Source of the DNA: an uncultured Gammaproteobacteria bacterium
GTDB taxonomy: Bacteria > Patescibacteriota > Patescibacteriia > UBA11705 > JABHMO01
Length of the DNA stretch: 64,000 bases
Reading direction: 5' to 3'
Assembly: GCA_964486065.1 (NCBI GenBank)
Contig: CAZAKN010000001.1
Span: 16,657-80,656 of the forward strand
Made by a program: the position numbers and the translations under genes. Numbering within the stretch: the first letter of the stretch is position 1; each line of letters starts with the position of its first letter. A model generated the notes under the pieces. It was not told where the DNA came from. It ran no database searches and saw only the letters and a list, made by a program, of their open reading frames with translations. Below, one piece after another: positions 8,735 to 63,724 of the stretch.

Positions 8735-8808
8735 GGGAGCTTAGTTAAGTGGTATAACATCGGTCTCCAAAACCGAGGTCGGGGGTTCGATTCCCTCAGC
8801 TCCTGCCA
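8735..8808 (+). tRNA. trnW: tRNA-Trp (anticodon CCA)
   Basis: Cloverleaf by eye: acceptor GGGAGCT/AGCTCCT (one G-U pair), D-arm GTTA..TAAC, anticodon stem TCGGT/ACCGA with loop CTCCAAA (anticodon CCA), T-arm GGGGG-TTCGATT-CCCTC, discriminator G and encoded CCA. Confidence 0.9.
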
Positions 8809-10644: not shown

Positions 10645-10752
10645 TAATTACCGTGGACACCGACAAGAATCGGTACTATCTTTGTCCGCATTGGAAATAC
10701 AATATGGAAAAGAAAATATATAATAATACAAACGAAATTATTCACCCTAATT

Positions 10753-11364
10753 ATGGCTCCATCATTTCACAGTAAACGATTAAACAACAAAATAAAATCA
10801 ACTGATAATTTATATGTTTTTATAGATTCTTCAAATCTATGGGCTGCACAAAAATCTAAAGGTAAATTATTTGATTATCAAAAATTAATAAAATATATAT
10901 AAATAAAATTCAATCCTAAAAAAATAGAAATATTCTATTACACAGCTTATCCAGCTGATGGGACAAGAGATTACAGTTTAGATAAAAGACATAAGTTTTT
11001 CACATTCCTCAAAAAAGGTTTGGGATTCATTGTAAGGAAAAAACCATTAAAACGAATTAAGATAACTGATGATGAATTAGGCGAAGGAATAAAAGAAAAA
11101 GGAGATATGGATGTTGAAATAACAGTTGATGCAATGCATCATAAAGATAAATATGATACTGTAATTTTCTTTTCTGGTGACTCAGATTTTCTTGCATTGG
11201 TAAGTTATCTAAAAAATCTGGATAAAAAAGTATATATTTTCTCATCAAAAAATAATATTTCAGAAGAATTGCGTACTAGCGCAGATGGATATTGTGATGT
11301 ATTAACAATTAATGAAAATACAGATAACATCTGGGGCAGAGAATTAAAAAGAAGACTAAAATAA
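10753..11364 (+). pseudogene. NYN-domain (LabA/DUF88-like) ribonuclease gene interrupted by one in-frame TAA at 10900-10902
   Basis: The single frame 10753-10899 translates to ...VFIDSSNLWAAQKSKGKLFDYQKLIKYI. After the TAA the same frame continues with IKFNPKKIEIFYYTAYPADG...DVEITVDAMHH...FFSGDSDFLALVSYL. These are the three conserved acidic NYN motifs in order, on both sides of one stop codon. The locus is visibly more AT-rich than its neighbours. Confidence 0.6.
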
Positions 11365-28079: not shown

Positions 28080-28940
28080 TCACTTCTTGTTGCCGAGACC
28101 GAAGGCGGCCTCAAGACCCTGACGGATCTTGTCGTGCTTCAATGCACTTTTGGAGACCGGCTTTTGTTCAGCCAGTTTCCACTGCAGGAACATCATGTAT
28201 CCCGCGATTTGATGAATCCGGAACTTCCTTCCCGAATTCATTTTGTTGAAATGATGCACATACTGCACATCGGAATTCAACACCAAGGCGACCTCCTGAT
28301 CGCCATGCCGGTAGCGACTGACCGCTACGGCCGGGAGACGCGGAATTTCCTTTTTCCGCCCCTTTTTTACGAATTCCTTGATCAGGAATTCGTGAAAAGT
28401 CTCGCCAAACACCTTGGCGGTGGGAATTTCCACTTCCAAAGTGTACTTTTCCCATTCTTCCTGAAACTTTTTGGCGTTTCGCTGAAACGCCTTCAAGGCT
28501 TTTGGCGAAAGCTCGCCAACCAACGCTTGAATCTCCTCATGAAGATTCTCCAAGAACTCCACCGGCTTCATCTTGCCGATGGGCGCTTCCAGTGCCGCCT
28601 GGACTTGTTTGTAACGTTCGTGCTGGTAATCCAGCACATCGCCCAGGCGTCGAGCTTCGTGGTTGCTGAACTTGATCTGGGGATCTTCGTTCAGCTTGAC
28701 CAGCAGGGCCCGAACATTGTCGTTCCTGACCAGGATTCCGACCGTCTTGATCATGCCGTCTTTGGTGAATCCATCATGGACATACACCACCGAGGCATCC
28801 TTCACCGAGTCAATCTTTTCCCCGGTGATTTTGTCGGCCAGGAAATCATCCCGGCCCATCAGATCGGTCAGAGCTTTCCCTTCCGGGTAGCCCCAGTTAT
28901 TGTGGATCTGGTCCACAAATTCAATTCTTTTTCCGGCCAT
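28080..28940 (-). CDS. hypothetical protein in a GC-rich insertion (no recognisable domain)
   Basis: The start was placed at the internal Met (MAGKRIEFVDQ...) with a strong AAGGAGG 7 nt upstream; the ORF-track start is 29015. Codon usage and GC are visibly higher than in neighbouring genes. The 280-aa antisense ORF 28134-28976 is a typical GC-rich shadow. Confidence 0.5.
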   Translation of the reverse strand: MAGKRIEFVDQIHNNWGYPEGKALTDLMGRDDFLADKITGEKIDSVKDASVVYVHDGFTKDGMIKTVGILVRNDNVRALLVKLNEDPQIKFSNHEARRLGDVLDYQHERYKQVQAALEAPIGKMKPVEFLENLHEEIQALVGELSPKALKAFQRNAKKFQEEWEKYTLEVEIPTAKVFGETFHEFLIKEFVKKGRKKEIPRLPAVAVSRYRHGDQEVALVLNSDVQYVHHFNKMNSGRKFRIHQIAGYMMFLQWKLAEQKPVSKSALKHDKIRQGLEAAFGLGNKK

Positions 28941-33944: not shown

Positions 33945-34469
33945 ATTTATTCGGTTAATATCTAACTTCGCATAATATTGATTAAGAGAAGTAATCTATA
34001 CTTATTATAACCATTAAAACATATATATCAACCCATATATCCACAAATTGTCTGTTCAACTGTCAATCTCCCTTCAAACATACCGCTTATTACACATGTT
34101 TCATGAAAAGTTTTTGTTTTTTGAGTGTTATACCATTCGGCTAAAAAACCCTCGCTTACAACGCAATTTTGAGCCTCATTTTTTAGCTAAATTTGAAGTA
34201 ATATTGCACCCAGTTCAAACACATTGAAATATACATATTACATGATCTTTAACAGCTGAATTTCGGATTATTTTGAATGATAATATATGTGAAATATAAT
34301 TAATTTTCATATAGATATATACAAAAGATAAATATATTGGAAAAACGAAATTTATGAATAAATGCAAAATATATAATAAATAGTCATTTATATAACACGA
34401 AATATTGCCGCACTACTCCGACAAGCAAAAAACAACACATTGTGTCGTAAAATATCAAAAGAGGATAAT

Positions 34470-34491
34470 TGTGGATAATAAGTTATCCACA
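34470..34491. promoter_or_regulatory. inverted pair of perfect DnaA-box 9-mers (TGTGGATAA-taag-TTATCCACA) inside a ~650 bp AT-rich non-coding region
   Basis: Both arms match the DnaA-box consensus TTATCCACA exactly. A third near-box ATATCCACA lies at 34037-34045, and a further perfect box lies at 11510-11518. Confidence 0.4.
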
Positions 34492-34589
34492 GCTATTAAA
34501 GCAATTTCAAAACTACGAATTCATTTCATTACAAACATTTAATTTCATGGTAATGTTTATCAACCTTTTTCGCCTCCCCCACTCCAATT

Positions 34590-34614: not shown

Positions 34615-34625
34615 CCTGTTTGAAA

Positions 34626-39173: not shown

Positions 39174-39635
39174 CTATTTGATTTCAATGATTTTATATTC
39201 CAGCAAACCGATCGGCGCTTCCACTTGAACAATATTACCTGGTTTTTTTCCGATAAAAGCTTGTCCCATAGGAGAATCATTGGAAATTTTCCCGTTGACC
39301 GGATCGGCTTCGTTAAATCCCACAATCGTTAATTCTTTTTGCACGCCGTTTTTTTCCACCACAAAATTTGAGCCGATTTGAATACTTTCTTTATCAGTGG
39401 CGTTTTCCTGCATTATGGCTTTTTTCAAAATTGTCTCAATTTCCACCACTCTGGCCGCGTACATGCCTTGTTGATCCTTAGCATCGTGATATTCCGCGTT
39501 TTCCGACAAATCCCCCATTTCCTTGGCTTCTTCAATTTTTTTGATGATGTCCGGAATTTTAACTTGCTTCAACTCTTGCAACTCTTGCTCCAATTTAGTT
39601 TTTCCTTCCGGCGTTAATATAATTTCTTCATTCAT
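39174..39635 (-). CDS. greA: transcription elongation factor GreA
   Basis: N-terminal coiled-coil with the acidic tip (GDLSENAEY), then a C-terminal FKBP-like domain. Confidence 0.9.
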   Translation of the reverse strand: MNEEIILTPEGKTKLEQELQELKQVKIPDIIKKIEEAKEMGDLSENAEYHDAKDQQGMYAARVVEIETILKKAIMQENATDKESIQIGSNFVVEKNGVQKELTIVGFNEADPVNGKISNDSPMGQAFIGKKPGNIVQVEAPIGLLEYKIIEIK

Positions 39636-39714
39636 ATTTTACGAGTCAATTAAATTCAGGCCCGATCGGACCTGATTGTAAATATATTGTAAACATAATA
39701 AAAAGTGCTGTCAA

Positions 39715-62541: not shown

Positions 62542-63198
62542 TTAAACAATCACAACAAACTCGCCTTTAGCTTTCTGCTCAACCTCTCGCAAAACCTCCT
62601 TGGCCGTGCCTCTGTATATTGTTTCAAATTTTTTGGTTAATTCACGGCAAACCACTATTTCTTTTCGCGAATCAAGAATTTCAACCAGTTCAGTAAGGGT
62701 TCTGACAATGCGATGGCAAGACTCATAAAAACAAACCGTACAATTGGCTTCCGTGATTTGTTTAAAAACTTTTCCTTTACCCTTTTTCGGCATAAATCCG
62801 AGAAATATGAATTTATCCGTAGGTTTGCCTGAAACACTAAGCGCGGTCGTAACGGCACAAGGTCCGGGAATCGGTGAAACCGTGAAATTCATTTCCGTAG
62901 CGAATTGCACCAATATATTACCGGGATCGGAGATCCCCGGTGTTCCCGCGTCAGTCACATAGGCTAAATTATTATATTTATGCAAAAGTGAGCTGATTTT
63001 CTCAGCTGAAGTATGTTGATGCAAACTGATGGTTTTCGCTGAAATATTCAATTTTTTTAGTAAATTTCCGGTTACTCTGGTGTCTTCACATAACACCACC
63101 TCCGCTTCACTTAAAATTCGCTCCGCGCGAGCGGAAATATCTTCCAAGTTCCCGATCGGAGTTGCCACGATATATAATTGTTTGATTTCCTGTTCCAT
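62542..63198 (-). CDS. rsmI: 16S rRNA (cytidine1402-2'-O)-methyltransferase RsmI
   Basis: LYIVATPIGNLEDIS...VLCEDTR tetrapyrrole-methylase-like fold typical of RsmI. The start was set at MEQEIKQ; the ORF-track extension to 63300 runs through a GC-rich structured region and is unlikely to be coding. Confidence 0.85.
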   Translation of the reverse strand: MEQEIKQLYIVATPIGNLEDISARAERILSEAEVVLCEDTRVTGNLLKKLNISAKTISLHQHTSAEKISSLLHKYNNLAYVTDAGTPGISDPGNILVQFATEMNFTVSPIPGPCAVTTALSVSGKPTDKFIFLGFMPKKGKGKVFKQITEANCTVCFYESCHRIVRTLTELVEILDSRKEIVVCRELTKKFETIYRGTAKEVLREVEQKAKGEFVVIV

Positions 63199-63199
63199 A

Positions 63200-63351
63200 T
63201 TGACAAATTTTTCAATTTTGCTATGATTTGTGCAGGTTCTTTTGGGGAGCGCTGGCCCATCCTCCCCGACTCTACCTCCTTCTTTCTCCTCTGGGGGCAT
63301 GAACGCCCCCGCTAAAATCTCACGCTTCGCCTTCTTCGGTGAAGCGTTTTT
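63200..63351 (+). ncRNA. candidate small RNA: consensus promoter (TTGACA-16-TATGAT) to intrinsic terminator, ~115 nt, GC-rich, with a CCUCCUUCUUUCUCCUC anti-SD-like tract
   Basis: -35 at 63200-63205 and -10 at 63222-63227. The predicted transcript (from about 63234) folds into GGGGAG...CTCCCC and GGGGGC-atgaac-GCCCCC hairpins, then the terminator CGCTTCGCC-ttcttc-GGTGAAGCG plus TTTTTATTT (63323-63351). No ORF is present, and it lies on the strand opposite to both flanking genes. Confidence 0.45.
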
Positions 63352-63369
63352 ATTTATAAAAAATTATGT

Positions 63370-63452
63370 TATAATTCAATCGCAAGTGTTCACTTGGAGC
63401 AGGACGCTCCACCTTTCAAATCAACGGCTCTCCACGCAGAGCTGTTTTTTAT
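63370..63452 (+). ncRNA. second candidate small RNA unit (TATAAT -10, short hairpin, terminator ACGGCTCT-ccacgc-AGAGCTGT followed by a T6 tract)
   Basis: -10 at 63370-63375, hairpin GGAGC-aggac-GCTCC, and a terminator with a T6 run at 63445-63450. The -35 is weak, and the 3' end overlaps the last codons of the minus-strand gene 63449-63724. Confidence 0.3.
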
Positions 63453-63724
63453 TTGGGACTTTCTGACTGCTCCGCAGAGTTATTATTAGGATTCCTTTCA
63501 CTTAAAGTTTGTTCCACCGCCGACACGAAATAATAAATCAAACTTAAAGCCGCCAACACCAGAATAAAAACCAACAAACAACAATTAAAGCGACTTTTAA
63601 AACTTTTTTTCTCCGAATCATTATTTTCCGGCTGAAAATCGGGGCGACGCGACGCTAAAAATTTTTTATTGACTTCAGCGTATTCTTTTTCTCTTTCCAA
63701 TTGTTCAAAATTGGAATGCTTCAT
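63449..63724 (-). CDS. hypothetical membrane-anchored protein
   Basis: 91 aa with a central TM helix (CCLLVFILVLAALSLIYYFVSAV). Confidence 0.4.
   Translation of the reverse strand: MKHSNFEQLEREKEYAEVNKKFLASRRPDFQPENNDSEKKSFKSRFNCCLLVFILVLAALSLIYYFVSAVEQTLSERNPNNNSAEQSESPK

Follow-up and report, generated by a model that had tools for sequence, protein, structure and literature searches.

The spacer described here lies between rsmI and a small open reading frame (ORF) of 91 aa in the 64,000-nt stretch of contig CAZAKN010000001.1 that was analysed as a whole (the window). On the minus strand, the genes run in the order NTP-transferase, mltG (YceG), a translin-family gene, the 91-aa ORF, the spacer, rsmI and metG. 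The plus strand at 63199–63456 reads, in order, a promoter (P1), an RNA of ~120 nt, an intrinsic terminator (T1), a second promoter (P2), an RNA of ~72 nt and a second terminator (T2), and both units are opposite in strand to both flanking genes (Table 1). The initial annotation of this DNA, made from the letters alone, had proposed two free-standing promoter-to-terminator units encoding candidate small RNAs (sRNAs) at this position, and scans of the window for promoters and terminators bear out the two plus-strand units.

The near-consensus promoter of the first unit (TTGACA-16-TATGAT) was recovered as annotated, at 11 of 12 consensus positions, together with an extended −10 element. TTGACA is located at 63200–63205, TG at 63219–63220 and TATGAT at 63222–63227, with transcription predicted to start near A63234. 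The −35 box is 2 nt from the start codon of rsmI, a proximity absent from the initial annotation. The terminator downstream was likewise present as described, apart from the length given for its stem: the stem (63322–63347) has 10 pairs, one of them G.U, rather than 9, and encloses a 6-nt loop before the tail TTTTTATTTA. The second unit, annotated as TATAAT, hairpin and T6, also stands, but its description as the weaker of the two does not. TATAAT (63370–63375) sits in the extended −10 box TGTTATAAT, and P2 is therefore not a weak promoter. T2 was also scored as a weak minus-strand terminator (63442–63427), and its tail extends into the stop codon of the 91-aa ORF, which is transcribed towards it; T2 may thus be a bidirectional terminator.

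Over its two strands (128 kb), the window contains P1 and only five more promoters that match at 11/12 or better, one directly in front of def-fmt and the rest directly in front of four other genes. Of TGNTATAAT boxes it contains five; apart from that of P2, they precede the tryptophan transfer RNA (tRNA-Trp) gene and three protein genes. All nine other sites of the two classes are thus at the 5′ ends of genes or of the tRNA. Terminators with a stem of at least 8 bp number 18, most of them at or near gene ends. The chance of finding a terminator within 150 nt downstream of a given site is ~0.02, and here this occurs twice in succession; tandem promoter–terminator pairs on one strand within 250 nt are therefore far beyond chance (~0.02 per pair, given the promoter).

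Table 1. Coordinates of features in and around the rsmI spacer of the window, and of the 10-codon mini-ORFs in related loci
Feature	Position	Strand	Remarks
Promoter P1, TTGACA-16-TGcTATGAT	63200..63227	+	Sigma-70 type, 11/12, extended −10
Candidate sRNA 1, ~120 nt	63234..63356	+	Hairpin 1, CU-rich linker, hairpin 2, terminator T1
Hairpin 1, core GGGGAG/CUCCCC	63242..63269	+	Arms 63244–63249 / 63262–63267; 3′ arm holds UCCUCCCC
CU-rich tract CUCUACCUCCUUCUUUCUCCUC	63270..63291	+	Linker between hairpins 1 and 2
Hairpin 2, UGGGGGC, loop AUGAAC, GCCCCCG	63292..63311	+	GGGGGC/GCCCCC at 63293–63298 / 63305–63310
Intrinsic terminator T1	63322..63357	+	10-bp stem, loop UUCUUC, tail UUUUUAUUUA
Promoter P2, extended −10 box TGTTATAAT	63367..63375	+	No good −35; predicted start near 63382
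Candidate sRNA 2, ~72 nt	63382..63456	+	Hairpin UGGAGC/GCUCCA (63395–63411), unpaired CCUUUCAAAUCAA, T2
Intrinsic terminator T2	63423..63456	+	9-bp stem (one G.U) at 63423–63446, U6 tail
Weak candidate rsmI promoter, TGAACA-18-CATAAT	63363..63392	−	9/12; predicted leader ~157 nt, complementary to all of sRNA 1
rsmI, 16S rRNA C1402 2′-O-methyltransferase	62542..63198	−	218 aa; PF00590, 3.3e-31; start ATG 63198
91-aa ORF, small predicted membrane protein	63449..63724	−	Far-side synteny anchor of the spacer
Mini-ORFs	L001 3517, 3337; L097 2083, 1888; L099 1502	−	
Mini-ORFs	L089 1813, 1584, 1407; L101 1578, 1333, 1126	−	

Folding of the first unit (63234–63356, 123 nt), a check that the initial annotation had suggested, gave three hairpins with a minimum free energy of −47.2 kcal/mol and a z-score of −5.07, none of 200 shuffled sequences being as stable. 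The minus strand of the same region reaches −3.11, so that the fold prefers the plus strand, and the plus-strand fold of sRNA 2 has a z-score of −2.24. The two GC-rich hairpins assigned to the first transcript, GGGGAG/CTCCCC and GGGGGC/GCCCCC, were confirmed at 63244–63267 and 63293–63310. CU-rich segments are present in three places: an arm of hairpin 1, the linker that joins hairpin 1 to hairpin 2, and the loop of the terminator. The pyrimidine tract that had been noted in the transcript is found in the linker as ACCTCCTTCTTTCTCCTC (63274–63291), and the window contains a single copy of a 15-mer taken from it, where 0.06 would be expected. It is predicted to be single-stranded, with an unpaired probability of at least 0.9 over CCUUCUUUCUCCUC (63278–63291). 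Its first part, ACCUCCUU (63274–63281), matches the anti-Shine–Dalgarno core of 16S ribosomal RNA (rRNA).

The guanine-plus-cytosine (GC) content of the 250-bp spacer had been described as far above that of its surroundings. This holds for ~63231–63340 only, which at 59–62% GC is the most GC-rich non-coding stretch of the window (window mean 38.8%, SD 7.9%), whereas 63350–63380 is AT-rich. The whole spacer has 46% GC versus 26–37% in the other ORF-free spacers of the window, and the tRNA-containing spacer peaks at 53%.

No ORF with a ribosome-binding site was found on the plus strand of the spacer, in agreement with the earlier proposal that the units are non-coding. A 78-aa ORF on the plus strand and a 49-aa ORF on the minus strand were rejected as coding candidates; both lack a properly spaced ribosome-binding site and run through the terminators. 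The features generally used to recognize a free-standing sRNA gene are thus present, namely a promoter and an intrinsic terminator of its own, an intergenic location and no ORF with a ribosome-binding site. When insertion signatures were sought, only a 19-nt direct repeat of 84% identity inside both flanking genes was found, and this was judged to be chance.

Taken together, the spacer is a credible orphan sRNA pair, in which sRNA 1 appears to be built like the C-/CU-rich sRNAs that mask Shine–Dalgarno sequences. The reading that we favour, with a confidence somewhat above even, is that it contains two independent plus-strand non-coding RNA genes (~120 and ~72 nt) and that the product of the first likely pairs with Shine–Dalgarno regions. 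We infer that the RNAs are made, that they pair in this way and that they affect rsmI. sRNA 1 would act by base pairing: its exposed tract ACCUCCUUCUUUCUCCUC would bind the purine-rich Shine–Dalgarno sequence of the minority of mRNAs that have one, and the duplex would block binding of the 30S subunit, as is the case for RoxS/RsaE and FsrA in Firmicutes and AbcR in alpha-proteobacteria. Transcription from P1 would collide with that of rsmI, and antisense pairing and transcriptional interference with this gene would be expected as a side effect or a second function. AAGGAGG-type Shine–Dalgarno sequences precede ~10 genes of the window, and the starts at 28940 (−) and ~35727 (−) each have a predicted pairing of ~−18 kcal/mol with the tract.

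The Rfam families were searched at gathering score on the whole window and 13 related loci, and in E-value mode on the spacer and the spacers of relatives. No family reached threshold in the spacer, the related loci or the relatives' spacers. Thus, the covariance-model search suggested in the initial annotation yielded no known family, and the two best matches are below threshold. The first is to ar15/AbcR (RF02345) on the plus strand, at 22.1 bits against a gathering score of 40 (E 0.014–0.025, spacer alone), and its alignment spans model positions 1–112, including both CU-rich motifs, hairpin 2 and the terminator. The second is to the ‘ylbH leader’ (RF00516) on the minus strand, at 16.7 bits against a gathering score of 50 (E 0.18–0.32). 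This alignment contains an exact AGAGGAGAAA followed by GGAGG, with an A-run before its first hairpin, like a terminator read in reverse. Northern blots in Bacillus subtilis detected no RNA from the ylbH strand and a strong signal from the opposite strand, the ‘ylbH leader’ being the reverse complement of the sRNA CsfG (PMC3574147). Because of this orientation, the match argues weakly for a plus-strand sRNA in the window. The initial annotation had named an Rfam match on the minus strand, explaining the structure as the rsmI leader, as the observation that would count against its proposal; superficially such a match exists (16.7 bits), but the family is a mis-oriented sRNA. Both matches therefore point, weakly, to a C-/CU-rich sRNA on the plus strand. 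Membership of ar15/AbcR or CsfG is rejected: both scores fall far short of threshold, the families come from unrelated phyla, and CsfG requires sigma factors of sporulation. Considered for the GC-rich island, RNase P, signal recognition particle (SRP) RNA, 6S RNA and transfer-messenger RNA (tmRNA) were set aside, having no Rfam or ARAGORN match, and a riboswitch or known leader had no Rfam match at threshold. ARAGORN found only tRNA-Trp at 8735 in the window.

Several observations weigh against the sRNA-pair reading. The Rfam likenesses, being sub-threshold, may reflect generic architecture and low-complexity sequence. A scan of the window for duplexes with the tract gave 161 sites versus 118–191 for shuffled tracts and therefore no enrichment; being of low complexity, the tract is without specificity at the scale of the window, and Shine–Dalgarno pairing by sRNA 1 stays a proposed step. 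Use of Shine–Dalgarno sequences is itself low, a recognizable one (AAGGAG or GGAGG at the right distance) preceding only about one gene in six, with none at rsmI or metG. Likewise, relatives offered no homologue. About 100 loci around rsmI homologues were compared (2 of them from reference genomes, 80 from metagenomes and 20 from assemblies) and are referred to by L numbers. A blastn and nhmmer search of the spacer against 87 loci recovered only L003 and L004, Logan assemblies in which the locus is identical to the window. The accessions of the assemblies containing this sequence are SRR7048223 and SRR7048224. A covariance model of unit 1 (R1) run on 72 loci and the window had a best E value of 0.06, inside genes, and the three matches to viral contigs in a scan with 18-mers were unrelated, with no homologue among them. 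Conservation and compensatory changes of the hairpins, which the initial annotation had suggested looking for, are thus absent from the available relatives, and there is no support from covariation; however, RsmI of these relatives is at most 64% identical, so that the test has low power and the absence of a homologue says little.

The position of the promoter, in contrast to its product, is conserved. Of 12 distinct loci from the nearest clade, 10 carry TTGACA-17-TGnTAnnAT opposite rsmI, 45–142 nt from its start codon, from which GC-rich, gene-free transcripts of 0.1–1 kb with intrinsic terminators are predicted. P1 appears to be this outward promoter pushed against rsmI, to 2 nt from its ATG. 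The sequences transcribed from the equivalent promoter in relatives are unrelated to those of the window, and the large RNAs show no Rfam match and no detectable homology among themselves except in very close pairs. Between L089 and L101, whose RsmI proteins are 94% identical, the nucleotide identity of the RNAs is 67% over 700 nt; those of L001 and L097, whose RsmI proteins are 89% identical, align only at a short motif. In L095, whose RsmI is 85% identical to that of L007, the site holds only a 125-nt AT-rich spacer (2376–2500), versus ~900 nt of transcribed GC-rich sequence in L007 (1940–3000), a presence/absence polymorphism. This absence and the unrelatedness of the transcribed sequences indicate that the site can do without its content and that this content changes quickly, which also counts against the sRNA-pair reading.

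The closeness of P1 to rsmI raises the possibility that the main function is cis-antisense control of that gene, through RNase III-type processing and interference, and that the likeness to the anti-Shine–Dalgarno sequence is incidental. There is no room for a promoter of rsmI between 63199 and 63233, that is, downstream of the sRNA gene, and since the −35 box of P1 all but adjoins the ATG (2 nt), any leader of the rsmI mRNA would be fully complementary to sRNA 1. Transcription of rsmI presumably begins at the weak 9/12 promoter (63392–63363) or arrives by read-through from the 91-aa ORF, and in either case the leader would pair with the whole of sRNA 1; if both are expressed, antisense pairing and interference are expected. 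The strongest duplex of the tract in the window is, trivially, with its own antisense strand. Additionally, no Shine–Dalgarno sequence was found upstream of the rsmI start, and the leader would hold AAGGAGGU ~80 nt before it. However, in the 10 relatives the promoter stands 45–142 nt off and reads away, without overlapping an rsmI leader, so that the association with rsmI is positional rather than antisense, and an antisense effect is ranked as secondary or incidental. The region of the rsmI start codon lies outside sRNA 1, and unit 2 would be left unexplained. Antisense control as the main function is accordingly considered unlikely. Less likely again is that the short transcripts are functionless and the spacer the decaying remains of a larger locus, which in relatives carries RNA or mini-ORFs (see below). 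Their site comprises 0.8–1.5 kb of GC-rich transcribed sequence with fast turnover and, between L007 and L095, presence or absence, and the spacer of the window is the shortest of those that retain the promoter. Decay would not be expected to spare a pair of promoters close to consensus, a pair of clean terminators and three hairpins that are GC-rich and perfect, nor is there residual similarity to the RNA or mini-ORF motif of any relative, and the sequence is identical in two independent assemblies.

The structure could also belong to the minus strand, as the rsmI leader or as terminators or insulators of the operon of the translin-family gene and the 91-aa ORF, with the plus-strand promoters fortuitous. 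Minus-strand folds do beat their shuffles as well (z −3.1 and −2.7), T2 adjoins the stop of the 91-aa ORF and scores as a weak minus-strand terminator, and the weak ‘ylbH leader’ match is on this strand, though that family is itself a mis-oriented sRNA. The details of the hairpins argue for the plus strand. In a minus-strand RNA, the one internal G.U pair in each of the T1 and T2 stems would be a C.A mismatch. Only on the plus strand do T-runs come after the hairpins; the tails on the minus strand are GAGAUUUU and CGUUGAUUUG. The promoter classes concerned are right at nine of nine sites elsewhere in the window. Most Patescibacteria have mltG or another gene immediately before rsmI, and nothing similar precedes rsmI in more than 80 other loci of that group. 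A minus-strand origin is therefore regarded as improbable, and a pair of plus-strand sRNA genes remains the preferred reading of the spacer.

The flanking genes were re-examined for their limits and affinities. The 5′ extension of rsmI in the ORF track, to 63300, is neither conserved nor called. The alignment of 27 RsmI proteins begins at the LYIVATPIGN block and the identical gene is called at 218 aa; the extension is therefore not coding, as had been held in the initial annotation. The best relatives of RsmI are annotated as Parcubacteria group, Falkowbacteria, Kuenenbacteria, Magasanikbacteria and Patescibacteria, the closest non-identical one being 64% identical. The N-terminus of the 91-aa ORF resembles that of a 155-aa ORF at the same position in L001 (the sequence of this one relative was compared), and other relatives have a called gene of 125–156 aa there. 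The public record of L001 (CAZMEQ010000014.1) is titled Gammaproteobacteria, while L001 belongs with Parcubacteria/Patescibacteria in gene content, synteny and RsmI relatives; the taxon label is probably wrong.

Elsewhere in the window, a GC hairpin, UCAGGUCCGAUCGGGCCUGA, with a U-rich tail lies between an 11/12 promoter at 39714 (−) and a gene start at 39635; this element (39656–39714, −) is a possible attenuator or leader. Two AT-rich stretches, 33945–34528 (584 nt) and 10645–11019 (375 nt), have 27% GC and no ORF of at least 70 aa, and terminator-like hairpins are found near them at 34617–34594 (−) and 11393–11364 (−).

In other relatives, four large GC-rich, gene-free transcripts could represent an undescribed large RNA or a hypervariable locus (L005 800–1660, L007 1975–2835, L008 ~1400–2385 and L088 1449–2430, all on the minus strand). 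They are ~0.85–1 kb long, with 52–68% GC versus 35–44% for their genomes, and have consensus promoters, no mini-ORF motif and no Rfam match. Intrinsic terminators close three of them (L005, L007 and L088), and no 3′ end was located for the fourth, L008. Internal repeats of 57 nt occur in L008 and L001. The site in L093 (733–1532, −) instead encodes two small proteins with a consensus promoter apiece; one is a hydrophobic peptide of 36 aa (MSAILGLISMFFYHLGLF...), the other is rich in Cys and zinc-ribbon-like. From the sequences, the rsmI flank shows itself as a hotspot of diverse small, apparently highly expressed units.

Relatives with an RsmI of 213 aa (L001, L097/98, L099/100, L089–91 and L101/102) carry one to three copies of a 10-codon mini-ORF per long transcript. 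Each has a Shine–Dalgarno sequence of GGAG(G)/AGGAG type 3–9 nt upstream, and all ten copies analysed stop at TAG. The consensus is M-x-R-R-[YF]-P-S-G-[FC]-x, with examples such as MRRRYPSGDT and MERRFPSGFV, and the single copy in L099 reads MCKRYPSWFT. Within the conserved core, entropy is 1.24 at third codon positions versus 0.81 at first and 0.75 at second positions, a pattern of variation that suggests selection on a translated peptide. No mini-ORF of this type is present in the window. The strand opposite the ATPIGN block of rsmI reads (R/K)FPIGVAT, CCGATCGG being palindromic (L066 3041, L099 2544, window ~63130–63170); the likeness of this antisense reading to the mini-ORF core RFPSG was judged a coincidence. 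Outside the window, these long GC-rich transcripts with conserved 10-codon mini-ORFs and no Rfam match are the by-product of most interest. A far-reaching joint reading, to which we give only a very small probability, would connect them with the window: sRNA 1, in whose 5′ half a GC hairpin is separated by 5 nt from ACCUCCUU-CUUUCU, would with this half mimic the 3′ end of 16S rRNA (helix 45 plus the anti-Shine–Dalgarno tail), it would be the local form of a clade-wide, fast-evolving and highly expressed RNA locus beside rsmI, and together with the mini-ORF arrays of the sister lineages, with their strong Shine–Dalgarno sequences, it would serve as a Shine–Dalgarno/anti-Shine–Dalgarno decoy that tunes ribosome loading in ultra-small bacteria in which Shine–Dalgarno sequences are little used.

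A limited literature search found no paper characterizing a base-pairing regulatory RNA in the Candidate Phyla Radiation (Patescibacteria). That regulatory RNAs are hardly described in this group, and that the locus behaves unusually in sister lineages, slightly raises the interest of the spacer. If expressed, sRNA 1 would be a test case with clean boundaries for Shine–Dalgarno-masking riboregulators in reduced, mostly Shine–Dalgarno-poor genomes, as well as a compact case of an sRNA and an mRNA transcribed towards each other at a gene for ribosome maturation. More generally, the ylbH case means that an Rfam ‘leader’ match on the strand of a gene can really be an sRNA of the opposite strand.

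Among known systems, the nearest in design are sRNAs with C- or CU-rich regions. AbcR sRNAs use CUCCC-type motifs to pair with ribosome-binding regions, and ar15/AbcR (RF02345, clan CL00108) shares with sRNA 1 a CUCCC-type hairpin 1, a single-stranded UUC(C)CCUCU linker, a short GC hairpin and a terminator. Of the motifs of this kind in sRNA 1, UCCUCCCC falls for the most part within the paired 3′ arm of hairpin 1, and that of the linker, CCUUCUUUCUCCUC, is unpaired. However, that family is from alpha-proteobacteria, which are of an unrelated phylum, and the likeness may be convergent or due to low complexity. In Bacillus, CsfG, RoxS and FsrA are sRNAs with C-rich regions; RoxS and FsrA pair with ribosome-binding sites, whereas CsfG has no known target and is under the control of the sporulation sigma factors F and G (PMC8216469, PMC4152353). 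RoxS/RsaE and FsrA of Firmicutes resemble sRNA 1 in having several unpaired C-/CU-rich regions that pair with G-rich Shine–Dalgarno sequences, but their motif is CCCC, while that of the window is CCUCC/CUCCUC, and neither family has an Rfam match to the window spacer at E values up to 10.

CsfG, which occurs in Bacillus and further endospore formers, is similar in several respects. It is a hairpin-rich sRNA of ~120–140 nt that ends in an intrinsic terminator, with conserved CU-rich stretches in loops and between helices, and its interhelical UUUCUCCUCU is matched exactly in the window, followed by CCUCC. Differences are also apparent: hairpin 1 of the window misfits the CsfG model and the alignment contains several non-canonical pairs, and the promoter is of sigma F/G type in an endospore former, in contrast to the sigma-70 consensus in a non-sporulating, Parcubacteria-type bacterium. 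CsfG is divergent from a 16S rRNA methyltransferase gene, ylbH, and was first mistaken for the leader of that gene. ylbH is also known as rsmD; the neighbour there is the gene for RsmD and here that for RsmI, of the PF00590 fold. The arrangement of CsfG with ylbH and of sRNA 1 with rsmI is a curious parallel rather than evidence of homology.

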